Virus record (IMG/VR): IMGVR_UViG_3300008020_000017
Span: 1-35,497 of that record
DNA: 35,497 bases
Strand: one strand, 5' to 3'
Source of the DNA: a virus
Lineage: Duplodnaviria > Caudoviricetes
A program made the translations under genes and the position numbers. Below the pieces are notes generated by a model. That model searched no databases. It was not told where the DNA came from and worked only from the letters and a program-made list of their open reading frames with translations. Below, piece by piece: positions 9,708 through 35,497 of this stretch (position 1 is its first letter; the number at the start of each line of letters is the position of its first letter).

Positions 9708-9890
9708 ATGCTCCTGCGCAACCTCAAGGCGGGCGACCGTCTCATCATCGGAGCGGTCATCATTGAGGTGAAATCCGCAGGCGCCAGCACGTTGCGTGTC
9801 GCCATCGAGGCCCCCCTCGACCTCGGCATCACGCACGAAAAGGGAGGTTGTGGACACCCAAGCCCGCTACCAGATGTGATGAATACCTAA
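9708..9890 (+). CDS. CsrA (carbon storage regulator)-like small RNA-binding protein
   Basis: MLLRNLKAGDRLIIGAVIIEVKSAGASTLRVAIEAPLDLGITHE aligns by eye with CsrA [46 protein letters not shown]. GAAGG RBS. Confidence 0.7.
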   Translation: MLLRNLKAGDRLIIGAVIIEVKSAGASTLRVAIEAPLDLGITHEKGGCGHPSPLPDVMNT

Positions 9891-10006: not shown

Positions 10007-11068
10007 TCATCGCAGTACAGCCCCCCGCAGGCCCATCTCAAACGTCGCCACATCTCCCATAAGATTAATCGTCTTGAAGCGCATCTGGTGGCCTTGAATG
10101 GTCATCTCTTCATCAACGGCACCACCGGTTTGGGGGTGCAGAAGCATTCCTTCTGCCGTGAGGCTTACTGGATCATCGGGCCTCTCCTGACTTCGCAGGT
10201 AGGTGTAGAGCTGATAGAGATACCCGCTTTTCAGGATATGATCTCGGTAATTTGATGAGGTAAAAATAGTGGTGAATTTTGTGTCAATCACGATCCGTCG
10301 CCTTGAGGCGGGGTGGTTCAATTCGATATCGGTCTGCATCCCCGGCAGGATCGCGGCCATCCCCGGAGACGAGCTGTCGACAGGCCATGACAGGCGCTTG
10401 CCCTGCGCAACGCTCCAGCCATTGGGCTGCAATTCAAGGCGTAGGGCATTGCCCACGGCACGTTCAAACAAACGGCGGACGAGGTGATCGTTGACGTTGG
10501 GTAGAGTACCGGTGACGTCGCCCATTTCTTCAGTCGGAATGCTCGTGTCAAACACCATCCCGGAAAGAGCCACCATGAATCGATCAGCGCTTTCATTCCG
10601 GGCAATCTGGTCGCTGGCCAGTTCCGTCCATGACGGTCGCGGGCCAATTACTCCCATACGGTTAAAATCCCCAGACAATTGTCGACATCGATGAGCAACC
10701 AGATCGTCCGACACCCTATTGGCCAGACGGTCCAAGGCTGCCCGCACGAGTCGGTTTCGCGGCGTGTCCATCGTATGTTCTTCGAAACGGCAGGCGATAC
10801 GACCCCGATCCATCAAGCGCCGCGTCGTCGTTTCCAGCATATCTATTCGACCCCGCACCCGCGACAGGGTTGCGGCCTTTGGACGATACCCGCGAGAGAG
10901 GTTTCGGCGCAGACGTTCTTCAACAACATGGGTCAACAATCGCGCTAACAGATCAGGAACATCCCGGGCAGTTTCTACCTGATGTTCAAACCGGTCGCGG
11001 AACTGAACCAAATCAGCCGCGTAAAGGAACAGCAGCCAGATATTTCGAAGGGGTATCGGTTCCGCCAT
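10007..11068 (-). CDS. mcrC: McrC-family nuclease subunit of a Type IV (modification-dependent) restriction system
   Basis: Start MAEPIPLRNIWLLFLYA (cf. E. coli McrC IPVRNIYYMLTYA), coupled to the mcrB stop by TAATG. TDIEL...IVIDTKF (PD-(D/E)xK) and YLYQLYTYL. 353 aa. Confidence 0.9.
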   Translation of the reverse strand: MAEPIPLRNIWLLFLYAADLVQFRDRFEHQVETARDVPDLLARLLTHVVEERLRRNLSRGYRPKAATLSRVRGRIDMLETTTRRLMDRGRIACRFEEHTMDTPRNRLVRAALDRLANRVSDDLVAHRCRQLSGDFNRMGVIGPRPSWTELASDQIARNESADRFMVALSGMVFDTSIPTEEMGDVTGTLPNVNDHLVRRLFERAVGNALRLELQPNGWSVAQGKRLSWPVDSSSPGMAAILPGMQTDIELNHPASRRRIVIDTKFTTIFTSSNYRDHILKSGYLYQLYTYLRSQERPDDPVSLTAEGMLLHPQTGGAVDEEMTIQGHQMRFKTINLMGDVATFEMGLRGAVLR

Positions 11069-12876
11069 TATAAACCTATGCGCAGAGCCTGTGCCGCTTC
11101 CCGGGCACGGTCGGAAGCATCGAACCAGTATTCCTCCAGCAAAGGTGCGATTTCGGTTTCGATCACCTCGGCAAACCATGCGCGTGAATCTAAAATGTCA
11201 TCATCCCCCGGTGTAACGTAAGAATGACCCACCCGAAATTGCGGCCCCAGCGCCCGATCCTGCGCAATTGTGTCATTCAAAGCGGTCATCCGGTCTCGGA
11301 TCAGGGTGATCGAATCTTCTGGAAAATCCCTATCACGGCACCAGTCAGCCCATGCATCATTAAAAAGGGGTTCCAGCGTGACAAAGGCAAACCTGCGGCG
11401 CAGGGCCAGGTCGACCAGCGCAAGTGAGCGGTCGGCGATATTCATCGTGCCAATAATGTAAAGGTTGTCCGGAACATGGACTTTTTCGCCTGGAATTTTC
11501 CGATAAGCGAGTTCCATCGCATCCGCGCGGCTACGTTTGGTGTTTTCCAGCAAGGTCAACATTTCACCAAAGACCTGTGCGGGGTTACCCCGATTGATTT
11601 CTTCGATGATCAGGACATGGGCCAGGTCGGGATGGGCTCGGGCTGCCTCGACAACCTGAAGGAAAATCCCGTCGGTAAGGGTCAACCCATTGCTGGATGG
11701 ACGATAGCCGCGGACGAAATCTTCATAGGACAGCGAGGGATGGAATTGGACCGAGCGGAGTTGATCCGGCAGGTGCGACCGGCGGCCGATCAAGGCCTTT
11801 GCCAGGCGCTTCGCAAGCCATGTTTTCCCTGTGCCAGGTGGACCTTGTAGAATCAAATTCTTCTTGGACGTCAGGCGATCAACAAGGCCCGACAGTGCAT
11901 TACGTTCCAGAAAGCCGCCTTCCGCGATGATATCGTCCACCGTGTAGGGTAGAATTTCCGTCACTGCGGCGTTATCATTTTCTTCCGCATCCTCTGCCTC
12001 GATTATGCTCAGAGGGTCAACCTCGGGGGCGAAACGCTCGGCCCAATATGAATGGCCGAGGAAATATCCGTAGTCCTGATCCGTCCCGTCAAAGGCAAAG
12101 GCCACCAACCGGCGCGCCATGTCATCTTCCTCGACGCGGGCCCGAGCAACGGTTGTCCGGTAGGTGTAGAAGTACCACTCTTTTGGCGGGTCGAGTTCGT
12201 GCCAGTCCACCTCAACAGTCAGACCGTCGCCCCGATTTGCGGTGATCGTCCCTGTGGCCTTGATTCGCATAACACTCGCAGCACGACCCTGATTTTCGAA
12301 GGGGACATCATTCTTTCGGGTGAAGGACGCCTTGATCGCAATACGATCTCCAGGTTTCATCTGCCTGACAAGCTTTGAGAATTTGTCTTCATAACCGTTT
12401 TGCCAGACACCTTCCCGCAAGAACCTTTCAGTCTGGTCGTCCGCTGACCATGATGCGCCGACGAACCAGTAATTGATGCCTTCCGGAACGTTGTCGTCCT
12501 TTGGGGCTTCTTGTTCGTCTTCGTCCCCTGAGAAGTTGATCCGTGCTGTCCGAAAGATTTCGGCAGCCCATTTCGTATTGAGATCAGCTTTCCAGCCTTG
12601 CTCGGTCAGCCCCCAGACACCGCGGCTGGGGGATGTCATCACTCCTGCCTTGAAAAGATAGGACCGAGCAAAATGAACCCGGTTTTCAAATTTTGACCCA
12701 CCATTTTTGTTTGTGAGAGAAAGAAAGCTGTCGGGAATATCATGACGCTTGACCAGTTCGTCAAAAATCTGCCGAGGTCGAGCCTGCCCCCCAAGGTCGC
12801 GCATGATCTCGATGACCGGAGCGAAATAGCTGACGAACTGCGGAACACCGTCAATTTTCTGATCGTGTAGACTCAT
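11068..12876 (-). CDS. mcrB: McrB-family AAA+ GTPase with N-terminal Mrr_N-like winged helix and a second putative DNA-reading domain
   Basis: QGPPGTGKT (Walker A), QFHPSLSYEDFV, IIEEINRGN (Walker B), GTMNIADRS (McrB NxxD signature), ALRRRF. N-terminus PVIEIMRDLGG...FENRVHFARSYLFKAG...RGVWGLTEQG is Mrr_N-like. Start ATG 12876 (MSLHDQ) preferred. Confidence 0.9.
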   Translation of the reverse strand: MSLHDQKIDGVPQFVSYFAPVIEIMRDLGGQARPRQIFDELVKRHDIPDSFLSLTNKNGGSKFENRVHFARSYLFKAGVMTSPSRGVWGLTEQGWKADLNTKWAAEIFRTARINFSGDEDEQEAPKDDNVPEGINYWFVGASWSADDQTERFLREGVWQNGYEDKFSKLVRQMKPGDRIAIKASFTRKNDVPFENQGRAASVMRIKATGTITANRGDGLTVEVDWHELDPPKEWYFYTYRTTVARARVEEDDMARRLVAFAFDGTDQDYGYFLGHSYWAERFAPEVDPLSIIEAEDAEENDNAAVTEILPYTVDDIIAEGGFLERNALSGLVDRLTSKKNLILQGPPGTGKTWLAKRLAKALIGRRSHLPDQLRSVQFHPSLSYEDFVRGYRPSSNGLTLTDGIFLQVVEAARAHPDLAHVLIIEEINRGNPAQVFGEMLTLLENTKRSRADAMELAYRKIPGEKVHVPDNLYIIGTMNIADRSLALVDLALRRRFAFVTLEPLFNDAWADWCRDRDFPEDSITLIRDRMTALNDTIAQDRALGPQFRVGHSYVTPGDDDILDSRAWFAEVIETEIAPLLEEYWFDASDRAREAAQALRIGL

Positions 12877-12904
12877 CACCACTTCCTGCTCCATCTGACC
12901 AAAT

Positions 12905-13067
12905 GAGAATGGCAGCATTGTGGGTGACCGCCAAGGGCGGCAGGTTTGAAGATAGCACCATCGATTGAATTTGCAGCAGCGCCAACTCTGCCTGACCGTT
13001 GTCGGATCGGCGCCTCCATGCGGCCGCACAGCGGCCACTGCGAAGGACGGCTGGGGCACTCGAAGAC
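12905..13067 (+). repeat. Degenerate accessory-flanking repeat copies upstream of mcrB
   Basis: ACTGCGAAGGACGGCTGGGGCACTCGAAGAC (13037-13067) fits the GCAGCGAA.G...GGC.C...GAC pattern. CAAGGGCGG (12932-12940) is the reverse complement of CCGCCCTTG (3265-3273). Confidence 0.4.
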
Positions 13068-13194
13068 TGGCGTCGGCTGAGGTCGGCTCCACCCGCCGCT
13101 GCCCTCAACGCATCTGTAAGGGCTTGGCCGACATCATCCAGTGAGTCCATGGCTTTCCTCGCCAACCTCTAAAACGCAGGATGTAGCCACGCCC

Positions 13195-16370: not shown

Positions 16371-17039
16371 ATGAACAAGCAGACCCGACCCCTTGCGGAT
16401 TTCATGCCGCTCCTGATGCCGAACGCCCCCGCATGCCCGTGGCCGGTGGCGGAACAGGCCCTCCGCCTGTCTGCGGCGGAGTTCTGCGAGCGCACCCGCT
16501 GCTGGCGTCACATGACCGAGCGCCGCATCCGCCGCCGGGAGTCCTGCATCGTCGCCCCGGAGTATTCGGCCATCCACGAGATCGAGTCCGCGTCCTTCGA
16601 CGGCGAACGCCTCGCCCCGATCCAGTTCAGCGACATCGACCCCGGCGAAGACGACGACGCCACCACCGGGCCCCCGCGCTGGATCGCCCAGGCAGGCCCG
16701 AACAGCGTCATCGTGATCCCGGTGGCCGAGGGCCGCCTGACGCTCTCCATGTTCCTCAAGCCCCGTGTGGGCGCGGACGGCGTCACCCGCGACACCTACG
16801 ACGGAGACAGCGACGAGCCCGCCAACAACGTGCCCGAGTTCCTGTTCGTCCAGCATGCCGAGGCCATCGTCGCGGGCGCCCTGAACCGCGTCCTGAACCT
16901 GCCCGGTCAGGTGTTCTCCAACCCGGCCCGGGCAGCTCAGTACCTTATGGCCTTCGAGCGCAACGTCGACACCCATTTCGCCCTCAATGTGAGAGGACAG
17001 CACCGTGCCCCTGCCAGAGTTCGCGCTCAGTATATCTGA
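16371..17039 (+). CDS. Putative second adaptor / virion structural protein
   Basis: 222 aa: LADFMPLLMPNAPACPWPVAEQALRLSAAEFCERTRCW...HAEAIVAGAL.RVL.LPG. Function inferred from position. Confidence 0.7.
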   Translation: MNKQTRPLADFMPLLMPNAPACPWPVAEQALRLSAAEFCERTRCWRHMTERRIRRRESCIVAPEYSAIHEIESASFDGERLAPIQFSDIDPGEDDDATTGPPRWIAQAGPNSVIVIPVAEGRLTLSMFLKPRVGADGVTRDTYDGDSDEPANNVPEFLFVQHAEAIVAGALNRVLNLPGQVFSNPARAAQYLMAFERNVDTHFALNVRGQHRAPARVRAQYI

Positions 17040-17595: not shown

Positions 17596-19184
17596 TCCGG
17601 CTCGCCGGCTTCAAGGGTGAGCTGCCGCGCATCCATCCCCGCCTGCTGCCGGAGGACGCCGCCCAGGTGGCCGAGAACACGCGCCTCGAAGACGGGACGC
17701 TGGTGCCGCTCAACGCCGCGCGGCTCGCCTACACCTTCACCACCGACACGGTGAGCTTCTTCCGCCGCCCCGATGGGGAGTGGCTGGGCTGGGGCGCTGT
17801 GGTCGATGCCGTGCCCGGCCCCGTCGCGGAGCTGCGCACCTATGTGACCGGCGACGGCCCCCCGCGCGTCATCGCCGACATCGCCTCCGCTCAGAATTTC
17901 CCGCTCCGGCTGGACCCGCCCGACACCGCTATCGTCGCGACCATCGGCCCGGAGGTTGTGGACGTCACCACGGCGGAGGCGACGTTCTTCACCTGCACCT
18001 TCGTCACCGTGCTGGACGAGGAAAGCCAGCCCGCGCTGCTGTCCAACGAGCTTATTCTGTCCAGCAACGTAACCGTGACGCTGACCATCGGCGCCACCCC
18101 GCCGCCAGGGCGCGGGATCAACCGTGTCCGCATCTACCGCAGCCAGACGAATGCGCTGGGCACCACCAACCTCTATTTCGTGGCCGAGCTGACCGTGGAG
18201 GCCGCCGCGGCGCCGTGGGTCCACGACCTTGAGGCCAACCCGCTGCAAGAGGGCGTCGTCACCGCGGATTACACCCCGCCGGTGGATGACCTGAAAGGCA
18301 TCGTCGCCTGCGCCAACGGCATCATGGCCGCCTTCTCCGGGCGCGATCTCTACTTCTCGGAACCATACCGCCCCCATGCGTGGCCGCAAAAATACAGCCT
18401 GACCATGGATTTCCCCATCGTCGGTCTGGCCGCGCTGGGCTCGTCCGTCGTCATCATGACCGAGGGCACCCCGTATATCGCCCAAGGCTCGACCCCCGAC
18501 GCCATGGTCAACACCCGCATTGAGCAGAACCTTCCCTGCGTCGCGGCGCGGGGCATCGTGGATCTCGGATATTCGGTCGCCTATCCCTCGACCGAGGGGC
18601 TTGTCGTCGTCTCCCCCGATCAGGGCGCGCGGATGATGAGCCGGGGCCTGTTCACGCGGAAACAGTGGGACGACATGGCCGCTGCCACCTTCATCGCGGG
18701 CCAGCATGTCGGGCGCTATATCTTCTCGCACCTGCCGGAGGGCGCGACAGAGCGGTCCATCAAGGTCATCGACCTGTCGGGCGAGCAACCGTACCTGATC
18801 CGCGCGACCGAGGTGGCCGAGGCCATGTTCTTCGAGATCGGCACCGGCAAGCTCTACCTGCGCGTCGGCGCCCGGCAGATTTTCGAGTGGGACGACATCG
18901 ACGGCGCCCCGAAGCCGCAAGTCTGGCGTTCCCGCCTCTACAACCTGCCGGGCCTGACCAACTTCGGCGCGGTCCTGGTGGAAGCGGACGGCGACACGAC
19001 GGACTCCGAGCTGCGCGTCTATGCCGACGGCGTCCTGCGCGACACCATCACCCGGTTCAACGAGGTGGATCGCCTGTCGGGAGACTTCCTCGCGATCCGC
19101 TGGGAGTTCGAGGTACGCGGCACCGCCGTCGTCACCGCCATCACGGTCGGCGGATCGGCAACCGAGATCGGGGGAGGGACATGA
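17592..19184 (+). CDS. Tail tubular/nozzle protein (P22 gp10 / T7 gp12 positional equivalent)
   Basis: ATG 17592 (MIRLAGFKGELPRIHPRLLPEDAAQVAEN). Beta-rich, with RIYRS, NGIMAAFSG.DLYFSEPYRPHAWP and YPSTEGLV. 530 aa. Confidence 0.8.
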   Translation: MIRLAGFKGELPRIHPRLLPEDAAQVAENTRLEDGTLVPLNAARLAYTFTTDTVSFFRRPDGEWLGWGAVVDAVPGPVAELRTYVTGDGPPRVIADIASAQNFPLRLDPPDTAIVATIGPEVVDVTTAEATFFTCTFVTVLDEESQPALLSNELILSSNVTVTLTIGATPPPGRGINRVRIYRSQTNALGTTNLYFVAELTVEAAAAPWVHDLEANPLQEGVVTADYTPPVDDLKGIVACANGIMAAFSGRDLYFSEPYRPHAWPQKYSLTMDFPIVGLAALGSSVVIMTEGTPYIAQGSTPDAMVNTRIEQNLPCVAARGIVDLGYSVAYPSTEGLVVVSPDQGARMMSRGLFTRKQWDDMAAATFIAGQHVGRYIFSHLPEGATERSIKVIDLSGEQPYLIRATEVAEAMFFEIGTGKLYLRVGARQIFEWDDIDGAPKPQVWRSRLYNLPGLTNFGAVLVEADGDTTDSELRVYADGVLRDTITRFNEVDRLSGDFLAIRWEFEVRGTAVVTAITVGGSATEIGGGT

Positions 19185-24186: not shown

Positions 24187-27100
24187 GTGGCCACTACTTT
24201 TGGACGCAATCTCGTCTCCGAAGCTCTCGACCGCGAACGCCAGCGGATCGCCCTTCGCGCCCGGGGCATCCTGCCCGGCGAAAAACCGGCACCGGCCCCC
24301 ACACCCCCACCATCCCCTTCCGGCGCATCGACCGCACCATCGGCCCCCGGCGCGCCGACCGAGGCTCCCGCCACGTCGACCGCCGATCCACGGTCCATGA
24401 TGGAGGACATCGCGCGCACCACCCGCGTCCCGGCGAACCTGCTGGCGTCCATCATCGAGGCAACAGGGTCGACCGACGCCGAGACCGCACAACGCACCGC
24501 AACCGCCGCCGCCCAGCGCATCGCGCCCCTGCTGGCGAGCGGCGTGTCGCCCGAAGACGCCGTGCGGCAGATTTTGGGCGACCGGGCCGACCCCGTCATC
24601 CAGCGCGCCTACGACATAGGCAGCGAATGGACCGGGGGCGCATCAAAGCCCGTCGAGAAGGACGGCACCGTCGCGGGCGATCTGGCGGCGAAGGCCGCGC
24701 AGGGCATAGTCGGCTCCGGTGTCGGCGTCACGCTGCGTGGCGCGGGTGAGCTGGCGGCGGTCACCGCCGACGCCGTCAACGCCCCGCTCAACGCAATTTC
24801 GCGCGCGGTCCTCGGTGAGGATGTGTTCTCCCGCGCCCCGGTGCTGGGCGTCCAGACATCGAAGACCGTGAAGGATTGGGCTGACGAGACCTTTGGCCCG
24901 ATGGTGTCGAAGGGCGGGCAGGACGCGATCAGGAACACCCGGATCAGCGGCAACGCCATCGACCCGTCCACCTGGGACTTCGGCACGGACCCGAGCGCCT
25001 ACGGCATCATCCTGCAAGGTGTCGAGGTGTTCGGCGGCATGCTCCCCGTCGTCGCCGCCGCTCTCCTTACAGGTGGCGCGGGCGCCATCGCTGTCGGCGC
25101 CTCGCAATCGGCGGGCGATCAGGCCATGGCCTCCGACGAAACCCTGACCCGAATGTTCGAGACGAAGGGCAAGGACGGCAAATCCGTGCTTGAAGCCGAG
25201 TCCAGGACGTTCCGCGACTATCTGGCCCGGGGCATGTCCGAGAAGGACGCCTTCGAGCGCACCCGCGCCGACGGCGCCCGCATGGCCGCGATCATCGCCG
25301 CCCCTATCGGCGCCCTGGGCGGCAAGATCACCCAGACCCTCGTTTCCCCCGGCACCAAGATCCTCGCTGGTCGCGGAATCGGCGCCCGCATCGCTGGCCG
25401 CGCCGGGCTGGGCGCCGCCGAAGAGGGCGTTCAGGAGGTGGCGGAGGTGGCCGGTGGCCGGTTCGGCACCAACACCGCGACCGGGACCGACATCGACCTG
25501 ATGGAAAACACCCTTGCCGACTTCGTCCTCGGGGCCTTCGCCGGTGGAGCCATAGGCGCAGGCGGCGGGGCGTTCTCGCGTCGTGAGCAGCCCACTCCCC
25601 TGCCCGCCCCCGCGCCACCCCTCGGTCTGCCCGCCCCAGCGCCGCAACCACCTGCCGGTCCTGACACCGGACCTGTCCCCGCGCCTGCCCCAATGGGTGC
25701 CGCGCCCACACCCCCGGCACCGCCTGCCCCCGCACCGCCGCCCGCCGGTCCCCTCGCTTCCGCCCTTGGATCGGCGCCGGAACCGCTGATGCCTGAGATG
25801 CCCGTCGGCACCCGCATCAGGGTGGACCTTGATCGCGGGGGCTCCATAGACGCGACTTACGAGGGTGAGAACGCCCTCGGGGTTCAAATCCGCGAGCCCG
25901 GCGCCACCGAAACCCTGACGATCCCGCGCGAAGAGATCGAGCTGGGCCTGTCCAGGATCTCGCCCGTCAACACCGATCGGGGTGTAATGACGGGCGACCA
26001 GCTCCGGGCGTATGCAGAGCAGCGCCTTGCCGAGTTCGATGAAAAGCCTGACGTGACGCCCCGAGATGAGGCGTTTGCGCAGTTCATCTTCGACAATATC
26101 GACAATCCCGACGAATTGGCAAAGGCGCTTGGCGTCACGATCAGGGATGAAGGTGATGGCACAGACAGTGGCGGTATGGGACCGGGCGGCCCGGGAAATG
26201 CTGGACAAGGGCCTGCTGACCCCGGCGCAGCACCGGCAGGTGTTCAAGTTCCTGAACCAGCCGGGCCAAACGTCGGTGCCGTCGAGGACACCCCTCACCC
26301 AGGCGCTGAACAAGGTCCACCTGTACGCCCTGCGACCCCTGAACAGCCGGTCGCTGTAACCCCGCCGCCCGCGAAACCGCAGGCGCCCGCCCCCGTCGTC
26401 ACGCCCGAGCCTCTCGATGGAAGCCCGGACCCGGAAATCGTGGAGTTCAAGCGCAAGGGCGCGCGCATGGGCCGCCTCATCGTGGTCGATCACGGCAAGG
26501 ATGGGTTCGAGGTCCGTTCCGATCACAATATCCCGGGCTATTCCAGCGCGTCAGGCAGCATCAATGGGCGGTTCCCGACCCGTGACGCCGCGGTGTCGGC
26601 TGGGATCGCGGACATCCGCGCCCAGGTGGCGGACATCGCCACCGGCAAGAGCGGCAGTACGTCGAACACGACGCGCGCCGACGCCAGACGCATCCTCGCA
26701 TGGCTGGACAGCATCGAGCCGAAGGCCGTCGAGCCTGTCGCGCCTCCCGTCAAGCCTGTGCCGCCGAAGGGCGGAATGAAGCCGCTCACACCCGAGGAAG
26801 GCGAGAAGCTGTTTCTGGACGCGCTGAACGAGGACGAGGCCGCCGACAAGCCTGCTGATGCGCCTGCAAAACCCCAGGAGGCTTCCGTCACCGGCGCCAC
26901 GGACGGCGCCCATGCCCGCTGGGCGCGCGACGTCGCTGCGAACCTGCCCGATGGCTGGACCGTCACTGTCGAGAAAGGCCCGGTCCCCTACGAGCGCATC
27001 GAGTTTTCCACCTTCACGGCGCCGAACGGGTACACGACCCAGCACAACGAGACATCCTACGCAACGACCTATGGCAAGGACCGTGTTGCCGCCGCCGCAG

Positions 27101-30100
27101 ACATGGTGAAGCGTTCCGAGGCGCCGACGCCACCGGCCAAGCCGCGCGTCACTCCGCCGCCGAAGCCCGCCGACAAACCCGCCGCGCCGGTGCGGCGGGC
27201 CGAAGAGGTGGACGAGTTCAAGCGCAAGGGCAAGACTCTGGTGCGCATCGTCACCTTCGAGTCCGACGACGGAAGGTTCGGCGCGGACCACGATTATGAA
27301 ATTCCGGGCTTTGCCGGCGGCGCTGGCCCGGTCTCCGGTCAAACGACCCGCGAGGCCGCAAAGCTGGCCGCAGCGCGGCGGGTCCGCACCAGCGTCCAGG
27401 ACATCGCGGACGGAAAATCCGGCTCCGCCGCCTCCCCCGCCAATATCGCCGATGCCAGGCGCATCCTTGCGTGGCTGGATCAGGCCGTTCCGGCATCGAA
27501 ACCCGCCGATCCCGCCCCTGCGCCCGCACCGGAGCCGACCCGCGCCCCGATCTCCACCTTTGAAATGGCCAAACTGGCGCGTCCGGTCCCGCTGGAACGC
27601 TACGACGAACTGATCGCGGAGGTTGCCGGCGAACCGGAGGCCCGGTATTCCAAGCTGACCGACACCCGGAAGATCGCTTTCGAGGATGCAATTCGCGCCG
27701 AGCTGGCAAAACCGGCCGTCGCGCCGGAACCGGAGCCGGTCAAGCCTGCCGACACATCTTTCGATGCCTTCGAGTTCACCCGCGAGCTGACCCTTGCAGC
27801 CGGAAAGACCACCTACCAGGGCACCACCTACCTCATCGAAGGCGGCTCTCAGGCCCGAGGGTTTTTCGTGTCGGTCTCTCGCCCCGGCGAACAGACGCGC
27901 GTGCTGATTGCGGGCAACAGAACGCGGTGGCGCCGCGAAGACGCCATAGAAAACGCCCTGCGGGACGCTTTTCCCGACACCCGGCCCGATGGCGGCCCCG
28001 ATGCCGGGGCGAATGTTGACACGGCGGCCGCCGAGGCTGACCCCGATCCGACCCCGGGACAGGCCGAGGCGGGCAATTACAAGCACGGCCACGTCACCGT
28101 TCAGGGCATGGACATCGCCATCGAGACGGCGAAAGACGCAATGCGCAAGGGCACCGATGCCGACGGCAAGGAATGGTCGACCAGGATGCCCGCCCACTAT
28201 GGCCGGTTCAAGGGCACCGTGGGCGCCGACGGCGATCAGGTGGACGTCTACATCGGCGGAGAGCCGGAGTCCGATTTCGCCATGGTCGTGGACCAGATCG
28301 ACCTCAAGACCGGCAAGTTCGATGAACACAAGGTCATCATCGGCGCGAAGGACAAGGCCGAGGCCATCCGCGTCTACAAGAAGAGCTTTTCGGACGGCAA
28401 GGGCGGCGCCCGCATCGGCGGTACTACCGAAATGACCATCGCCAAGCTCAAGGAACTGCTGGTCCTGCCGATGGACAAGCCGCTTGTCCAAGCGCCTATC
28501 GACCAGGACGGCGGCAAACCGGGTGACAAGCCGGGAGCCAGGATCGACGACTTCGGCGCCAGGATCGGCCGCACCCGAAAGGAAGCGGCCAGGAAGCTCG
28601 CGGCGTCGCTCGCCACCGAGATCGACCCGAACGGGATGACCCTCTCCGAAGCCTTCCCGATCCCTGACTACGTCGCTCTGGCTGCGGATGGTGTCTCGAC
28701 GGAGGCCATGACCCTCATCGCCATGATCCGCGCCGCGGTCCCGCGCAAGGCCGGTGCCCGGCGCTGGGGATGGAACGACAAGGTGCAGGACGCCCGCAGC
28801 TTGGTGCGTGACGTTCTGGACGGCGGCATGAGCCGCAATGATTACCTCGCCGACCTGTCGACATACCGGGGCTCCGACACGATCCGCCTGGGCAACAACC
28901 CCGGCGACAATTTCCGCGTCCTGATGCAGATGGAGCCGGGCGACCTTCACACCGCGTCCAGTGAGTTCGAGGTCGCGTCGATCACCACCCTCAAGACGGA
29001 CCTCGGCGAAGTCCTGTTCGACGGCGAGTCCAAGTGGCGTGAACGCTTTACCATCCAGAAAGCCGGGAAGTACCGTGGCCGATCCGGCCTGACCACCACC
29101 AACAGCGCCGACACCGCCACCGAAGAGGCCGACGTCGCCACCCTGGCCGCCGAAATGAAGCGCATGGTCAACGCCCTGCGGGAGTACCGCAGCGGGCGCA
29201 AGAGCGGCGACGGCGAGATAAAGTTCCAACTGCGCACATGGAAGGGCGGTGGCGCGGCGATCTTCGTTGTGAAACCGCGCATCCTGCAACTGACGCCCAG
29301 GTTCCCGACGTCGACAACGGCCCGGGCTTATCTGGAAGAGAACCGCGAAGAGCTGGAAGACAAGGCCCGCCTTCTGCGATCCGGCCCGAAGGAACGCCGC
29401 GAGTCCAACAGCCCCCGCAAGGGTCCGTCGTGGCGCACCGGCAATGCCACAGAGGCCATGTTCATCGACGGCCTGGGGTTCCGGGGCGTGACGTTCGGCA
29501 AATCGCTCACCCAGAAAGAGCGTCAGGCCCGGATGAACGACACCTATGACGCCATGATGGACCTTGCGGGCATCCTCGGTGTGCCGGTGAAGACCCTCTC
29601 GCTCAACGGCGCGCTCGGGATCGGCTTCGGCACCCACGGCACCGGCGGCAAGGGCCATTGGGCCGCCGTCTACATGCAATCGTCGGACAGCACACAGGAT
29701 CAGGTCATCGCCCTGACCCGCGCCGGTGGCGCCGGCACTCTCGCACATGAGTGGTGGCATGCCGTCGACAACTTCCTTGCCCGCAAGGACGCCGCGGCTG
29801 GCGGCGCCCCCGCCACGATTTCCGGCGACAAGGCGTCCCGGCGCACCGAGTTCATGAGCGATCGCTTGCAGGGCGCGTCCAGGCTCGCGCCCGAAACCGC
29901 CAAGGCGTTCGAGAGCCTGCGCACCGCGCTCGAAAAGAGCGACTGGAAGAAGCGGATGGATCGCTTTGACCACTTCAAGGGCAAACCCTATTACGGCACG
30001 GTCATCGAGCTTGCGGCGCGCGGCTTCGAGCGCATGGTCATCGACCAGCTCGCATATCGCGGCATGTCCAGCGACTTCCTTTCCAACATCAACGAGGTCG

Positions 30101-33100
30101 ACGGTGCGTACCTCACGCCCGTCGAGTTCAGCCGCACCGGCATCGGCGCCGCCTACGAAGCCGCGCTGGCCGCCATTTCCGCCGAGCTGAACGTCAAGGG
30201 CGAGACCGGGCCGGTCCTGCCCGACATCATTGCGGACCGTGTCCCGGGCGAACCCGCCGTGGGCGACACATGGGACAGCCCCGCAGGGCAGCGGGAAATC
30301 ATCGGCTATCTTCACGACATCAAGCCCCACCTCCAACAGTTCACCGTCACCGACCCCGCGACGGGTCGCACGGTCGACATGAACCCCGTCGAGCTTTTCC
30401 AGGCGCAGATCGCAGACGCCTACGGCATGACGCCCCTCGGGCAGTTGGAGCAGGCTGAGAAGGTCGCGGCTGTGGAAGCCGGCGAGACCGCGAAGAAGGC
30501 GCAGGAAGTGCGCGATGCGGCGCTTGCAGAGAAGCGCGCCGGTCATCAGGCCCAGAAGGCGCGCGCCATTGCCGCGATTGACGACTGGATCAACAAGACA
30601 GGCAAGAACCCCGGCGTGGTCAAGGATCGCCTCGGCAAGGAGTTCAGCAAAACCGAGGTTGGCAGGTTCACGGTCGGGCAGTTCATCGTGGTGTTGGTCG
30701 AGCGGGGCGATGTCGTCCGGACCGGCACGGTCGACGGCAAGAAATCCATGGGCGGGTTCAGCGAGGGTCAGCTCACCAAGCTGGGCCTTGAGTTCGCCAC
30801 CTTCTACGAGGCCCGCTGGAAGGCCGCAGAAGCCCAGGCCGAGGCCACGAAAGCGGCGTCGGACAAGGCCCGCGACGAGTTCGGCTTCCGCGCCGACAAC
30901 CCGGGTGGCGACTGGCTGATCGAAAAGCTGCTGTCCGCTGACACCTATATGAAAGACCCATCTTTTGCAGACACCGCCACCGGCAACGGCCTGAGCGGCG
31001 CGACCACGGGCTTTTTCAGCAAGACCCTGTTCCTTCCGTCATCCATCCTTGCGACCCTGCCGGGCGCCAATGGCGAGAGCCCCGCGCCGGGCCAGCCGAA
31101 GTTTGACGGACTCATGGCCGATGTCGAGCGCGACGGAGCGTTCAAGGCTGACCAGAGCGGCAACGCCGTGGTTATCGGCGTGAACCACACGGGCGCGGCG
31201 TTCGTTCTGGAGGGCAACAACCGGATCGCCGTCGCGCGCAAGCTGGGCGTGAAGACCCTGCGGGCAGAGGTGCGGTACTGGAACGGGGGCGAGGCCAACA
31301 CGGGGCCGATGACCCCCGCCAAGGTCGCGGCCATGGCGAGCCTCGAAAGCCCGGGCGACATGCCCGTCGCGCCAGCCGAACCGAATGCCCCCGACGGCGG
31401 CATGAAGCCGATGAGCGCCGAGGACGGCGAGAAGCTGTTCCTCGACATGCTGGATCAGGACGAGGCGGGCGCCACCCCTGTCGACACCCCCGGCCCGGTC
31501 GCGGGAGAGCCACGCCAGATCACCGACGCCTTCCTCGCGGAGTTCCGCACGGGCCGTTCGTTCCGCACCATCGGCCAGGCCCGCAAGCTCGCGGGCGAGA
31601 CGCTGGGCCGCGGCATCGGCGAGGGCGAATACTTCATGGTCGAAGAGGCCGTGGAGCTTGCCGTCGTGCTGCGCGCCCGCGAAATCGTCGCCGAGGATCG
31701 CGCCCGCGACGGAGGGCCGGACCCGGTCGCCGTCTATGCCGAGTTGATGGAGCTTTACAACGCACAGCCGATCCTTGGGGAGCGGACCCCCGACAAGCTG
31801 CGGTTCCAGGCATTCTCGACCCCGGCGCCGCTGGCCTATCTGGTGTCGCGCCTCGCGGGCATCGGCCCCGGCACCCGCGTCCTTGAGCCGACCGCGGGCA
31901 ACGGCATGCTGGCCCTTGATGCGACCCCGGCCAACGTGCAGGCCAATGAGCTGCAAGATAGCCGCACCGCCCAGATCGCCACCTCCCTGCCGGGCGCACA
32001 GCAGACGCAGATGGATGCCCTGGACCTGAGCCCGGAACCCTTCGACGTCCTCATCACCAACCCGCCCTTCGGCAAGCTCACCGATCAGGCGACACAGAAG
32101 CGTAAGACCTGGGACATGGGCGTGACATCCACCAAGGAAATCGACCATGCAATCGCATGGAAGATGCTCGGGCACATGCCGGATGACGGGCGCGCGGTCC
32201 TGATCCTTGGTGGCATCAAGAAGCAACTGATCGGGGATGCGCGCAAGAAGGCGTATCAGGAGCGCGCGAAGACCACATTCTTCAAGCAGCTCTACGACAC
32301 CTACAATGTCGTCGACCATTTCACGGTCGCGGGCGACCTCTATTCCCGGCAGGGCGCGGCGTGGCCGGTGGACGTTATCGTCATCGACGGTCGCAGTCGG
32401 TCATCTCGGGAATATCCGATGAAGACCCCACCGGATGTGCTATCGTCGTGGGTAGATTTGGGAAGGAAACTTGACGATGCGCCTGATGTGGACACCACCG
32501 AGCGTGGACCCTCTGTTGGGGACGGTCTTCTCAACGGAACGGACCTTGATGTCCGAGGCGCAGTACCTGGGGCGGCTGGAAGCCCGGCTGGAACGAATGG
32601 TGGAGAAGGCGACGCGGGCGGAAGTCCGGGAGCTGGAAGAAAAGCTGTGGGGCGAGGGCCTGATGGCGATGGACGTGTCTCCGTCACGGGCGGCCGAAAT
32701 GCTGGTTCAGGAGTGCGAGGCTCTGACGCTGGCGCTGGCGTCGCTGGACAAGGTGGCGTGGCCGGTGCCGGAGAAGGCTTGGATAAAGACGGACCCGGAA
32801 ATGGCGGAGGTGAGTCTGGAGGACTTCGTGATGCACCTGTAAGCCCGCCGCCGACACCCGGCGACAAGGCTGCCGACGGCATGGGCGACATCCTCAAGGG
32901 GATTCGCGCCGCGCTGAACTCCATCGATCCCAACAAGCTGAACTCCGGCCCGGCGTTCCTCGAAGACGTCTACAAGGCGCTGAAACCCCACTTCATCGCT
33001 GGCATCCGCAAGTTCGCCGACGCGGCCATTGACATCGTCGGCATGGTCAAGGCCATGATCGCGGGGCTCAAAGCTGCCGGGATGACGGCGGATGAACAGC

Positions 33101-35497
33101 GCACCATAGCGCCCTATGCGGGCCGGTTCATCGCCGATGTGACCGAGGGCAGGATCGACCCGTTCTCGGACGCCGCGCCAGAACAGGCCCCCGCCCCGGC
33201 ACGCCGCATCAACACCGAGACCGAAACCGAATATCAGGTTTATTACGAGCCGAAATCGAAGGCGCTGTTCCAGGTCGGAACCCTCGTTCCGCGCGCCATG
33301 CAGCAGGCCATGGGCCGGGCGCTCGACAGGATCGAGGCCCAGCACGGCGACATCGACAGTTACGTGGCCCGCGAGCTTGGGTACACCTATGATGAGGTCG
33401 TCGGGACACCTGAAAAGGAAGGCTATTTCTCCGCCGAGCAGGTCGACGCTCTGGCCATGGCGATCCTGAACGTCAGCCAGGGCAAGGGCTTCATCATCGG
33501 CGACCAGACCGGCGTGGGCAAGGGCCGCTTCGTCGCCGCCATGCTGCGCTACGGCGCCAGATTGGGGCGCATCCCGGTATTCGTGACCCAGAAACCAGGC
33601 CTTTACGCTGACATGATCCGCGATCTGCGCGACATCGGCATGCCCGAGGCGCAGGCACAGGTGATTGCGACGAACGCAGGGCTCGATCCGGTGCCGATCA
33701 ACGACGCCGATGACCTGTTCACCGGCGCCAAGCCGAAGGCGCTCAGGGAGCTGTTCACGGCCCTGCGCAACGGCAAGATGCCCGAAGGCAAGACCTATCT
33801 GTTTACAACCTACGACCAGATGGTGACGCAGAAAGGCGAATGGCCCGAACGTGCCAACGCGCTGATGGCCGCCGCCCCAAACGCCATGCTCATCATGGAC
33901 GAAAGCCACACGGCCGGCGGGCTCGCAAGCGGTCGGACTCAGGTGCGTGAAAAGGGCGCGCCCCCGGAGAACCGGGCGCAGTTTTTCCGCGATCTCGTCG
34001 GTCTGGCCTCCGGCACCGTCTTTTCGTCGGCCACCTATGCCAAGAACCCGAGCGTGATGTCGCTTTATGCCTCGACCAACCTCAACCTTGCGGTCGACGA
34101 CATCGAGAACCTGGCCTCAGCGATCACCAAGGGCGGTGTGCCCCTGTTGCAGGTGGTGGCAAACCAGCTCGTCGCCGACGGTCAGTATGTGCGCCGCGAA
34201 AAATCCTTCGACGGCATAGACTTCCTGCCCGCCGAACTGACCGCCCAGCGCGAGCATGCCATCGAGGTCGCCGCCATGGTCGGCGAAATGGCCCGGTTCG
34301 ACCGCGACACCATGGAGCCAATCCGTGAGGCCGTGAAGGACAGGCTGGGCGAGGAAGGGTTCATCGGCGTGGGCGACAGCGCCGTCGGGGTCAAGTCCAC
34401 CGCCAGCGCCGAGTTTTCCTCCACCGTCCACAACCTCGTGAGCCAGTTCCTTCTGGCGGTGAAGCTGGATGGTGCAGCAGACCTTGCCATCGAAGCCTGG
34501 AAGCGCGGCGAAAAACCCGTCCTGACCCTGATGAACGTGAACACGTCCATCATCGCCGAATACCTCTCGGCCAATGGCATCACCGAAGGCGACGATGTCT
34601 CCATCCCGTTTGCGGCCATCATGGACCGCTACCTTGAGCGCCTGCGGCAAATCACCGTCGAGACCACATCCGGCCAAAAGATCAAGCACCGGCTGTCCGA
34701 CGCCGATCTCGGAACCGCCGCCGTGACCGAGTTCGCCGCGCTGAGCGCCCGCATCGTCAACATGCCCCTCAAGGGGCTGACCGGATCGCCCGTGGACGCC
34801 ATTCTCGACAAGCTCCGCGACGTCGGCATGAAGGTTGACGAGATCACCGGGCGTCAGTCCGTGATCGACCACGGCACGGTGGCGCGGCGCATCAGCAGCC
34901 CTTCCGACAACAAGCGCCGCATGAACGAGTTCAACAATGGCGACCTTGACGCGCTGATCCTCTCCGCCTCCGGCTCCACCGGCTTCTCGCTCCATGCCAC
35001 CGGCAAGGGGCGGAACGACGGCAGGAAGCGCCGGATGATCGTCTTGCAGCCGCATGCCGACATCAACGTGTTCATGCAGACCCTCGGGCGCATCAACCGC
35101 ACCGGCCAGATTGTGCTGCCCGCCTACAGCCTCGCCTTCTCCGACCTTGCGATCGAGCGTCGTGCCGCCGCGATCCTGATGAAGAAGCTTGCCTCCCTCA
35201 ACGCCAACACCACCGCGAGCAAGAAGGGCGCCACGACCCTGACGGAGGTTGTCGATTTCGTGAACGAGGTGGGCGACGAGGTTGTTGCGGCCTACCTGCG
35301 CGAAGATCCGTTCCTCGTCATGCGCCTCGGGCTGACGGTGCCCGGTACGTCGAACGACCCAGAAAAGCGCGCGCCCGGCCTTGAGGACTTCGCCAAGAAG
35401 GCCACGGGCCGCTTCGTGTATCTGCACCCCGACGAGGTGACGCAGCATTTCGAGTCCATCGAGGCGGCCTATATCGACAGGATCGCCCAGCTCGAAC
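24187..35497 (+). CDS. Giant DarB-like polyvalent virion protein (>3770 aa, 3' end outside the window): InPase, LPD1, ParB-like, N6-adenine MTase, strawberry-notch SF2 helicase
   Basis: Absent from the ORF track because it has no stop. GTG 24187 follows an AAAGGA RBS and an in-frame TGA at 24148. Motifs: AEAGNYKHGH..HYGRFKGTVGADGDQVDVYIG..FDEHKV (about 28048-28460); RIDDFG, GFRGVTFG, LAHEWWH (29746), ELAARGFE; VLEGNNRIAVARKLG (31210); AFSTP, VLEPTAGNG (31879), NPPF (32059); GDQTGVGKG (33499), DESH (33898), STGFSLHA, QTLGRINRTGQ (35077). Confidence 0.92.
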   Translation, partial: MATTFGRNLVSEALDRERQRIALRARGILPGEKPAPAPTPPPSPSGASTAPSAPGAPTEAPATSTADPRSMMEDIARTTRVPANLLASIIEATGSTDAETAQRTATAAAQRIAPLLASGVSPEDAVRQILGDRADPVIQRAYDIGSEWTGGASKPVEKDGTVAGDLAAKAAQGIVGSGVGVTLRGAGELAAVTADAVNAPLNAISRAVLGEDVFSRAPVLGVQTSKTVKDWADETFGPMVSKGGQDAIRNTRISGNAIDPSTWDFGTDPSAYGIILQGVEVFGGMLPVVAAALLTGGAGAIAVGASQSAGDQAMASDETLTRMFETKGKDGKSVLEAESRTFRDYLARGMSEKDAFERTRADGARMAAIIAAPIGALGGKITQTLVSPGTKILAGRGIGARIAGRAGLGAAEEGVQEVAEVAGGRFGTNTATGTDIDLMENTLADFVLGAFAGGAIGAGGGAFSRREQPTPLPAPAPPLGLPAPAPQPPAGPDTGPVPAPAPMGAAPTPPAPPAPAPPPAGPLASALGSAPEPLMPEMPVGTRIRVDLDRGGSIDATYEGENALGVQIREPGATETLTIPREEIELGLSRISPVNTDRGVMTGDQLRAYAEQRLAEFDEKPDVTPRDEAFAQFIFDNIDNPDELAKALGVTIRDEGDGTDSGGMGPGGPGNAGQGPADPGAAPAGVQVPEPAGPNVGAVEDTPHPGAEQGPPVRPATPEQPVAVTPPPAKPQAPAPVVTPEPLDGSPDPEIVEFKRKGARMGRLIVVDHGKDGFEVRSDHNIPGYSSASGSINGRFPTRDAAVSAGIADIRAQVADIATGKSGSTSNTTRADARRILAWLDSIEPKAVEPVAPPVKPVPPKGGMKPLTPEEGEKLFLDALNEDEAADKPADAPAKPQEASVTGATDGAHARWARDVAANLPDGWTVTVEKGPVPYERIEFSTFTAPNGYTTQHNETSYATTYGKDRVAAAADMVKRSEAPTPPAKPRVTPPPKPADKPAAPVRRAEEVDEFKRKGKTLVRIVTFESDDGRFGADHDYEIPGFAGGAGPVSGQTTREAAKLAAARRVRTSVQDIADGKSGSAASPANIADARRILAWLDQAVPASKPADPAPAPAPEPTRAPISTFEMAKLARPVPLERYDELIAEVAGEPEARYSKLTDTRKIAFEDAIRAELAKPAVAPEPEPVKPADTSFDAFEFTRELTLAAGKTTYQGTTYLIEGGSQARGFFVSVSRPGEQTRVLIAGNRTRWRREDAIENALRDAFPDTRPDGGPDAGANVDTAAAEADPDPTPGQAEAGNYKHGHVTVQGMDIAIETAKDAMRKGTDADGKEWSTRMPAHYGRFKGTVGADGDQVDVYIGGEPESDFAMVVDQIDLKTGKFDEHKVIIGAKDKAEAIRVYKKSFSDGKGGARIGGTTEMTIAKLKELLVLPMDKPLVQAPIDQDGGKPGDKPGARIDDFGARIGRTRKEAARKLAASLATEIDPNGMTLSEAFPIPDYVALAADGVSTEAMTLIAMIRAAVPRKAGARRWGWNDKVQDARSLVRDVLDGGMSRNDYLADLSTYRGSDTIRLGNNPGDNFRVLMQMEPGDLHTASSEFEVASITTLKTDLGEVLFDGESKWRERFTIQKAGKYRGRSGLTTTNSADTATEEADVATLAAEMKRMVNALREYRSGRKSGDGEIKFQLRTWKGGGAAIFVVKPRILQLTPRFPTSTTARAYLEENREELEDKARLLRSGPKERRESNSPRKGPSWRTGNATEAMFIDGLGFRGVTFGKSLTQKERQARMNDTYDAMMDLAGILGVPVKTLSLNGALGIGFGTHGTGGKGHWAAVYMQSSDSTQDQVIALTRAGGAGTLAHEWWHAVDNFLARKDAAAGGAPATISGDKASRRTEFMSDRLQGASRLAPETAKAFESLRTALEKSDWKKRMDRFDHFKGKPYYGTVIELAARGFERMVIDQLAYRGMSSDFLSNINEVDGAYLTPVEFSRTGIGAAYEAALAAISAELNVKGETGPVLPDIIADRVPGEPAVGDTWDSPAGQREIIGYLHDIKPHLQQFTVTDPATGRTVDMNPVELFQAQIADAYGMTPLGQLEQAEKVAAVEAGETAKKAQEVRDAALAEKRAGHQAQKARAIAAIDDWINKTGKNPGVVKDRLGKEFSKTEVGRFTVGQFIVVLVERGDVVRTGTVDGKKSMGGFSEGQLTKLGLEFATFYEARWKAAEAQAEATKAASDKARDEFGFRADNPGGDWLIEKLLSADTYMKDPSFADTATGNGLSGATTGFFSKTLFLPSSILATLPGANGESPAPGQPKFDGLMADVERDGAFKADQSGNAVVIGVNHTGAAFVLEGNNRIAVARKLGVKTLRAEVRYWNGGEANTGPMTPAKVAAMASLESPGDMPVAPAEPNAPDGGMKPMSAEDGEKLFLDMLDQDEAGATPVDTPGPVAGEPRQITDAFLAEFRTGRSFRTIGQARKLAGETLGRGIGEGEYFMVEEAVELAVVLRAREIVAEDRARDGGPDPVAVYAELMELYNAQPILGERTPDKLRFQAFSTPAPLAYLVSRLAGIGPGTRVLEPTAGNGMLALDATPANVQANELQDSRTAQIATSLPGAQQTQMDALDLSPEPFDVLITNPPFGKLTDQATQKRKTWDMGVTSTKEIDHAIAWKMLGHMPDDGRAVLILGGIKKQLIGDARKKAYQERAKTTFFKQLYDTYNVVDHFTVAGDLYSRQGAAWPVDVIVIDGRSRSSREYPMKTPPDVLSSWVDLGRKLDDAPDVDTTERGPSVGDGLLNGTDLDVRGAVPGAAGSPAGTNGGEGDAGGSPGAGRKAVGRGPDGDGRVSVTGGRNAGSGVRGSDAGAGVAGQGGVAGAGEGLDKDGPGNGGGESGGLRDAPVSPPPTPGDKAADGMGDILKGIRAALNSIDPNKLNSGPAFLEDVYKALKPHFIAGIRKFADAAIDIVGMVKAMIAGLKAAGMTADEQRTIAPYAGRFIADVTEGRIDPFSDAAPEQAPAPARRINTETETEYQVYYEPKSKALFQVGTLVPRAMQQAMGRALDRIEAQHGDIDSYVARELGYTYDEVVGTPEKEGYFSAEQVDALAMAILNVSQGKGFIIGDQTGVGKGRFVAAMLRYGARLGRIPVFVTQKPGLYADMIRDLRDIGMPEAQAQVIATNAGLDPVPINDADDLFTGAKPKALRELFTALRNGKMPEGKTYLFTTYDQMVTQKGEWPERANALMAAAPNAMLIMDESHTAGGLASGRTQVREKGAPPENRAQFFRDLVGLASGTVFSSATYAKNPSVMSLYASTNLNLAVDDIENLASAITKGGVPLLQVVANQLVADGQYVRREKSFDGIDFLPAELTAQREHAIEVAAMVGEMARFDRDTMEPIREAVKDRLGEEGFIGVGDSAVGVKSTASAEFSSTVHNLVSQFLLAVKLDGAADLAIEAWKRGEKPVLTLMNVNTSIIAEYLSANGITEGDDVSIPFAAIMDRYLERLRQITVETTSGQKIKHRLSDADLGTAAVTEFAALSARIVNMPLKGLTGSPVDAILDKLRDVGMKVDEITGRQSVIDHGTVARRISSPSDNKRRMNEFNNGDLDALILSASGSTGFSLHATGKGRNDGRKRRMIVLQPHADINVFMQTLGRINRTGQIVLPAYSLAFSDLAIERRAAAILMKKLASLNANTTASKKGATTLTEVVDFVNEVGDEVVAAYLREDPFLVMRLGLTVPGTSNDPEKRAPGLEDFAKKATGRFVYLHPDEVTQHFESIEAAYIDRIAQLE
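26156..26359 (+). CDS. Putative nested gene (+1 frame) inside the giant protein, 67 aa, unknown function
   Basis: MAQTVAVWDRAAREMLDKGLLTPAQHRQVFKFLNQPG...LTQALNKVHLYALRPLNSRSL has protein-like composition and a purine-rich upstream region (AGGGATGAAGGTG). Host-frame codon bias collapses over this interval. Alternative ATG 26147. Confidence 0.55.
   Translation: MAQTVAVWDRAAREMLDKGLLTPAQHRQVFKFLNQPGQTSVPSRTPLTQALNKVHLYALRPLNSRSL
26443..27480 (+). repeat. Internal duplication of an 89-aa domain in the giant protein
   Basis: 26443-26709 and 27214-27480 both read EFKRKG...IPG(Y/F)...TR(D/E)AA...V.DIA.GKSGS...ADARRILAWLD. Confidence 0.85.
32477..32842 (+). CDS. Putative nested gene (+1 frame) in the MTase-helicase linker of the giant protein, 121 aa, unknown function
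   Basis: GGAAGGA RBS 9 nt before ATG 32477. MRLMWTPPSVDPLLGTVFSTERTLMSEAQYLGRLEARLERMVEKATRAEVRELEEKLWGEG...EVSLEDFVMHL is amphipathic-helical. The host frame here is low-complexity Gly-rich with many A/T-ending codons. Confidence 0.65.
   Translation: MRLMWTPPSVDPLLGTVFSTERTLMSEAQYLGRLEARLERMVEKATRAEVRELEEKLWGEGLMAMDVSPSRAAEMLVQECEALTLALASLDKVAWPVPEKAWIKTDPEMAEVSLEDFVMHL

Follow-up and report, generated by a model that had tools for sequence, protein, structure and literature searches.

A giant gene at the end of a phage contig raises the question of whether the linker of a large virion protein can also encode a second, smaller protein. The analyzed DNA (the window; 35,497 nucleotides) is a 35.5-kb podophage contig that encodes a terminase, a P22-like portal, a capsid protein, and internal virion genes. 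Its giant gene harbors a 67-codon open reading frame (ORF) in the +1 frame. The principal features are as follows.

24187..35497, plus strand: host gene, encoding a DarB-like polyvalent protein of more than 3770 aa; last gene of the virion operon, cut by the contig end.
24364..25581, plus strand: N-terminal module of the host protein, common, at least in part, to the hosts of all eight members of the family described below.
26146..26358, plus strand: linker as read in the host frame; Gly/Pro/Ala/Asp-rich, unconserved in sequence, with fewer Arg, His, and Cys than recoded controls.
26156..26359, plus strand: putative nested gene (67 aa and a TAA stop), shifted +1 against the giant gene; pI 11.4, with predicted helices at approximately residues 2–18, 23–33, and 46–59.
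32477..32842, plus strand: second nested +1 gene (121 aa) in the methylase–helicase linker, belonging to a different family that is nearly universal in relatives.

The host protein carries the Pfam domains InPase, LPD5, LPD1, methylase, AAA_34, and Helicase_C_4. It thus shares with the virion-borne polyvalent or DarB-like proteins, as laid out in the relevant part of PMC5512222, a methylase–helicase dyad combined with LPD and InPase domains and a location among virion genes. From this context and that description, the giant protein is predicted to travel in the virion and to protect the injected DNA. The gene has internal duplications, including an 85-nt segment present at 26770–26854 and 31396–31480 (78% identity) and a domain of approximately 90 aa repeated at 26448–26708 and 27219–27479. 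Elsewhere in the window, a restriction-type cassette of a McrB-like gene (Mrr_N and AAA_5) and a McrC gene (PF10117) occupies 10007–13092 on the minus strand; it is oppositely oriented and flanked by the gene that follows the portal and by the major capsid gene. A 60-aa ORF at 9708–9890 has a weak match to CsrA (E 0.004, under the cut-off).

The giant host frame is intact around the nested ORF in all eight family members, as is characteristic of an embedded gene. An open +1 frame alone is no evidence for a gene, since it is expected by chance: recodings of the linker leave this frame open in 89% of cases (range among the members, 66–97%). Codon usage is more telling. The original prediction had counted by hand 34 A/T-ending codons among the 60 host codons at 26161–26340; the count is exact, and elsewhere in the gene the share is 16.8% (binomial p 3e-12). 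When the linker residues are recoded with the codon usage of the gene, A/T ends average 10 over 5000 trials and never exceed 20. Past the nested TAA, G/C ends return as described, with A/T in 5 of the next 30 host codons. The accompanying caveat, that Pro-rich linkers also relax codon bias, holds in kind and falls short in degree: A/T ends are raised at 25583–25789 (24 of 69), but the peak there, which is the highest count outside both nested ORFs, reaches 23 of 60 (at 25615). In 40-codon windows of the giant gene, GC3 drops below 0.6 at the two nested ORFs only. Likewise, of the ATG frames of at least 35 aa within the gene, codon log-odds identify as coding 2 of 15 in the +1 frame and 0 of 6 in the +2 frame, and these two are the nested ORFs.

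A contig from another run covers 25735–26938 with zero differences, which excludes an assembly frameshift; contigs of other runs have no indels in the region, and the phage occurs in other samples with no variants in the ORF. Both nested ORFs had also been said to begin just after a globular domain. This is true of the second, which follows the methylase; the segment upstream of the first has no Pfam hit and differs among relatives.

Direct searches with the 67-aa protein are empty, as expected if gene callers skip such nested genes. They give zero matches in viral contigs and in 5.8 billion proteins of 36–118 aa, a single match at E 6 in GenBank phages, and no hit in Pfam or PHROGs. The host family was therefore gathered first (120 proteins, 235 loci), and six-frame translations were then searched. 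Seven relatives emerge in phages and prophages, all found in six-frame searches, and each is nested in the +1 frame. The first (L085) scores E 4.5e-4 among 73,534 six-frame peptides; in a BLASTP comparison with the window, its nested frame aligns at 30% identity (E 3e-8), while the host frame is not significant (E 0.22). A second (G395) is the sole match in 401 genomes (E 4.9e-4), two others (G536 and G677) score E 8.8e-10 and 1.3e-4, and the Paracoccus onchidii Z330 relative (L013; NZ_JAQBIE010000024.1) is found at E 4.7e-8 with a larger profile. The ORF of L174, which matches a Roseobacter sp. AzwK-3b entry, was first added by eye (E 0.26 with two seeds only) and later confirmed by leave-one-out (E 4.6e-5). 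The seventh, L170, is a weak member (E 0.056–0.24 among the 73,534 peptides). In the reverse direction, a profile of five other members recovers the window ORF at E 1.1e-5.

Further searches delimit the family. A three-member profile finds 1 protein among 17 candidates, namely the C-terminal 39 aa of the L174 ORF itself (annotated as RAZWK3B_16635), and 0 of 72 pattern matches in viral contigs. The host-frame flanks used as a query return no relative in viral contigs and one match of unrelated context among representatives. A search of 5 genomes gives 0 members. At a threshold of E 0.05, 401 genomes give 10 matches, of which 3 are members (one a seed) and 4 that were inspected lie outside giant genes; the 401 class-level and 381 family-level genomes, which are overlapping samples, contain no new member. 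Scored with the eight-member profile, all of the weak matches are at E 0.0075 or worse. A free-standing homologue is found in none of the protein, contig, or genome searches, and a relation to the second nested family is undetectable (best E 0.085).

All eight members lie in the +1 frame of a giant host frame, in an N-terminal linker at host codons 635–832, and host GC3 is 0.28–0.51 inside the nested ORF compared with 0.67–0.85 outside. At the nucleotide level, the conservation z at nested codon positions 1, 2, and 3 is 10.0, 18.3, and 3.0, respectively, such that the peak falls on the host wobble position. By frame, z is 33.6 for the nested frame, 11.9 for the third frame, and 8.9 for the host frame; this comparison is partly circular in that members were picked and aligned in the nested frame, while the place where the hits landed was unselected. 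These patterns argue strongly that the conserved protein is that of the nested frame, with the host frame required only to stay open and flexible. With comparable firmness, and on sequence grounds, the ORF may be regarded as a real nested gene under protein-level selection.

The family is rare and patchy; thus, the giant protein works without the 67-aa product. A back-inference search places it in 4 of 120 related giant proteins, all 4 already members, and it is present in 4 of the 20 loci that share the N-terminal module. The host domains flanking the nested ORF vary among members. The G536 and G677 hosts match the N-terminal module and InPase of the window but not its methylase or helicase, which, together with the patchiness, marks an accessory gene. 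These two hosts (G536:C32 and G677:C2) comprise 4628 and 5119 codons, respectively, with N-terminal, InPase, and C-terminal parts as in relatives.

The linker itself is constrained in both frames. Relative to the nested protein recoded with ordinary codon usage, its host-frame reading contains 2 rather than the expected 8.3 Arg, His, and Cys residues and 33 rather than 22.9 Gly, Asp, Ala, and Glu residues. The wobble positions of the nested frame are thus biased such that the host linker stays rich in the latter and poor in the former. Accordingly, the linker is shaped by the nested gene and yet selected as a flexible spacer. A linker that is purely a by-product was considered and rejected, as its composition correlates at 0.46 with the same frame of ordinary genes, in which Arg makes up 22% rather than 3%.

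AlphaFold2 predictions with 3 and 8 sequences give the same three helices (pLDDT 76 and 77, pTM 0.55–0.58). With mean pairwise identity at approximately 23%, the features conserved in the members are the Gly separating helices 1 and 2, which is invariant, the hydrophobic character of the last helix, and a Pro close to the end. Seven of the eight are basic and one is acidic (pI 4.1), and therefore no common nucleic-acid-binding charge is kept. The protein contains no catalytic motif. Searches of solved folds with the models reach at best Z 5.1, with no Foldseek hit at E 0.001; there is thus no clear match, a result that speaks for neither a new nor a known fold. Several assignments were tried and rejected. 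The SHOCT domain (PF09851, PF20612) shares the turn helix-G-[LI]-[ST]-x-x-[EQ]-helix, but its match is confined to the first half of a protein that in this case stands alone and has a further, conserved third helix; it scores 12.5 bits against a curated cut-off of 24 and is weak in two of the eight members (E 0.17 and 0.098). A RelE/ParE-type toxin, of the BECR alpha/beta fold, is incompatible with models that have no strands; the Atlas lead to it (scores 0.82–0.86, approximately 80–100 shared features) was unrepeated with a second member, and all Atlas leads for the protein are below 0.9 and were dropped. An Rz1-type outer-membrane spanin does not fit a window protein that has no Cys and a host that is a DarB-like gene, nor does a ShiLan-type HNH homing insertion fit a product of 67 aa that is all helical, with no HNH family hit in the eight members.

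Nesting had been predicted to be a repeated design feature of this gene, and it proves to be one of the whole family. The second nested ORF has a counterpart in 125 of 130 distinct loci: a +1 ATG ORF of at least 60 aa beginning 25–49 codons after the methylase motif, at codon 37–38 in 105 loci and never in the +2 frame; the 130 include one fragment of this phage, and the anchor motif is present in 148 of 223 loci. Another, upstream nested +1 candidate occurs in 27 of 94 distinct hosts of at least 3000 codons compared with 1 of 94 in the +2 frame, the former being a lower bound, as the L085 and L013 members escaped detection. The 67-aa gene is an accessory member of this pattern, rarer than the nearly universal methylase–helicase nested gene.

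Forty further nested +1 ORFs (e.g., L034:9045-9266, L184:9309-9521, L086:9429-9728, L176:7593-7865, and L137:5872-6063) lie in the N-terminal halves of relatives. They represent further families, are small and mostly basic, have strong ribosome-binding sites, and in several cases cluster together. Two such ORFs are located downstream of the helicase (L209 and L211). The DarB-like gene of Ralstonia phage GP4 (MH638294.1, L003) contains three unannotated +1 ORFs with GC3 dips: L003:15758-15937 (59 aa), 16472-17026 (184 aa), and 17741-18109 (122 aa). The 184-aa ORF is HNH-like by eye and similar to L184:8343-8801, with no Pfam hit. The 59-aa ORF was tried as a member of the 67-aa family and is not counted, since its E of 8e-6 alone becomes 0.45–0.77 at database scale and a further search did not recover it.

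Among cultured phages (Heva, UAM5, BcepIL02, and Bcep22, loci L261–L264, in addition to GP4), the comparable site holds the 59-aa ORF in GP4 and Heva, none in UAM5, and a different 54-aa ORF in Bcep22 and BcepIL02. The GP4 and Heva copies differ at approximately 12 of 59 residues. For Heva, DNA similarity to GP4 breaks off at the stop codon of the nested ORF; for UAM5 and the Bcep phages, it does so at the start of that ORF. The 54-aa +1 ORF follows a strong ribosome-binding site. In the cultured-phage records examined, only the giant gene is annotated over the nested sites.

To account for these observations, the ORF is taken to be very likely a real small gene, located in the +1 frame where a giant virion gene has its first long linker. 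Its translation likely starts at a ribosome-binding site of its own on the late transcript, and its predicted three-helix product may bind the giant protein or the assembling head as an optional partner. Taken as a whole, this explanation is rated somewhat short of even, although it is the one preferred. A partner role is suggested by the lack of a catalytic motif, by the conservation of a hydrophobic pattern rather than of charge, and by inheritance with the N-terminal part rather than the methylase–helicase. That the target would be the co-transcribed giant protein or the virion, in analogy to Ulx and the DarB of phage P1, is weakly indicated; the sole tie of the product to the giant protein is position.

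The most serious competitor, a credible minority reading, holds that the ORF is independent cargo: a small late protein directed at a bacterial target (anti-defense, transcription, or superinfection control), for which the linker is free coding space. Cargo accounts for the patchy, exchangeable pattern nearly as well as a partner does. In its favor are the patchy presence, the unrelated neighbors, the unrelated nested ORFs at similar sites in other relatives, two of them HNH-like by eye (no Pfam hit), the single site that is filled in GP4 and Heva, empty in UAM5, and refilled in the Bcep phages, and the basic charge of most members. However, cargo of this kind would not be expected never to occur outside giant genes in any search, nor to keep to host codons 635–832 in every member, and the acidic member departs from a common nucleic-acid-binding charge.

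The preferred reading also requires a start site, for which the window offers one modest candidate.

26143..26149, plus strand: Shine-Dalgarno-like site (−4.9 kcal/mol) before the ATG at 26156; overlaps the alternative ATG at 26147.

A site of this strength is equaled by 17% of the +1 ATGs in the giant gene. Additional in-frame ATGs lie at 26066, 26147, and 26198. The last scores −5.8 but would lose most of the conserved first helix, which begins upstream of it; thus, the alignment favors 26156 or 26147. The nested start is an ATG in all eight members, and the ribosome-binding site is strong in five and moderate in the window. At those five starts, anti-Shine-Dalgarno pairing is −6.7 kcal/mol or stronger, a value that no more than 4% of the giant gene's 69 +1 ATGs attain. 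There is no promoter or terminator consensus near the ORF on the coding strand. Judged from these sites, separate initiation is likely, in preference to frameshifting.

Programmed frameshifting from the giant frame would instead yield a short form of approximately 730 aa, consisting of the N-terminal module and a three-helix tail. As a short injection protein, such a product would make sense, the window site is only moderate, and the +1 frame is open for 16–53 codons upstream of the ATG in seven of the eight members. Nonetheless, this route is very unlikely: the L085 frame is closed one codon before its ATG, which has a very strong site (−11.8 kcal/mol), strong sites mark the ATG in most members, and the coding score drops steadily upstream of 26147. 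Equally improbable is that the act of translation is what matters, with +1 ribosomes slowing or dosing translation of the giant protein and the peptide being secondary. Both nested starts do lie at module borders, but a regulatory ORF would not need the Gly, the hydrophobic last helix, and the Pro that are kept at such low identity. The least probable alternative is that there is no gene, only a linker rich in Gly and Pro in which codon bias is relaxed and chance has left the +1 frame open, as the high probability of openness, the A/T-ending codons of the other Pro-rich linker, and the absence of Pfam or PHROGs hits would permit; it is countered by +1-frame homology where the host frame shows none, by independent six-frame matches that all land nested, and by the conservation peak at the host wobble position.

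If the nested gene is accepted, its origin may be considered. By a slight preference, it would once have been a separate small gene that became enclosed when the giant frame read through it. The original prediction had suggested capture with the host frame kept open, and this part is plausible: 143 of 360 67-codon windows in the ordinary genes of the phage are already open in the needed frame, so read-through capture is feasible, and in cultured phages a comparable nested ORF is present, absent, or replaced, with borders at its start and stop. The free-standing homologue that capture would call for did not appear in the searches.

The two nested ORFs end in nearly the same sequence.

26354..26369, plus strand: 16-nt end context, first copy; contains the nested stop and encodes host Val-Thr-Pro-Pro-Pro.
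32837..32852, plus strand: 16-nt end context, second copy; contains the stop of the second nested gene and encodes host Val-Ser-Pro-Pro-Pro.

The identity of 15 of 16 positions is as originally described, and the window has 2 matches compared with 0.08 expected. The significance attached to it does not survive comparison, as the 16-nt end is absent from all seven relatives (0/7). The best of 124 other second-ORF ends has 5 mismatches to it. Of 5505 cross-genome end pairs, 0 match with 2 mismatches or fewer, and each of the 31 remaining within-genome pairs has at least 5 differing positions. The resemblance is thus above chance and private to this genome, and not a conserved signal. GTA-A in the host frame is what a +1 TAA requires. 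The shared end is probably the result of Val-Thr/Ser-Pro-Pro-Pro coding and local duplication; because the gene has other internal duplications, a copied linker end would be the simplest reading. No deletion joint between the two 16-mers is seen in the contigs.

Among the closest known systems is Rz1 of phage lambda. Rz1 is nested in the +1 frame of Rz, and the two products are partners; an Rz1-type spanin is a lipoprotein with a lipobox Cys, nested in Rz within the lysis cassette. The 67-aa gene resembles Rz1 as a small separate gene wholly inside another phage gene on the same strand in a shifted frame. It differs in that the host is a multi-domain virion protein of 4000–6000 aa with two or three nested genes in its linkers, and in that the gene is optional, with no lipoprotein signal by inspection and no lysis context.

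The pertinent part of PMC8785237 describes embedded genes as rare in Caudoviricetes and names the lambda lysis cassette as their best example. The ShiLan domain, as portrayed in the section of PMC11855218 devoted to it, is an HNH endonuclease lying out of frame, inserted in a phage methylase. Like the 67-aa ORF, it is a gene in another frame inside a phage gene, with a stop-free host frame read as a loop and a patchy distribution. ShiLan, however, encodes a homing nuclease, which accounts for how it spreads, and no ribosome-binding site is detectable for it (PMC11855218, same section), whereas the 67-aa product has no nuclease motif and usually a Shine-Dalgarno site. Small helpers of a giant virion protein are known from phage P1, where Ulx and DdrA are small Dar accessory proteins and Ulx “aids DarB localization” in the words of the Dar portion of PMC9024508. 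Unlike the nested gene described here, these helpers are listed as separate ORFs (PMC9024508, same portion), and Pfam and PHROGs do not connect the 67-aa ORF to any family. A term search of PMC5512222, covering its main text, turned up no nested gene and neither “overlap” nor “linker”. The literature searched, which included few subscription papers and no supplements, yielded no description of genes nested in DarB-like or polyvalent genes.

As a broader and rather doubtful generalization, the disordered linkers of giant polyvalent proteins might serve as interchangeable sites that hold a second layer of small, unannotated genes. The shifted reading of each cassette would be the linker, cassettes would be gained, lost, and swapped with borders at their starts and stops, and their products would chaperone, load, or switch the giant protein; the 67-aa family would then be a cassette of this type that goes with the N-terminal injection module. 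Because the nested frame can receive stop codons that are silent in the host frame, culturable lysogens of Rhodobacterales would allow a direct test of the role of the small proteins.

The findings mean that giant virion genes of a widespread class routinely carry embedded genes, though such genes are held to be rare in tailed phages, and that gene callers drop them. Deletions or domain swaps in DarB-like genes would remove nested small genes unnoticed. What is described as a “low-complexity linker” in a giant protein may in part be the other reading of a gene, and the nested small proteins are candidate helpers for packaging and ejecting a protein of 400–600 kDa.
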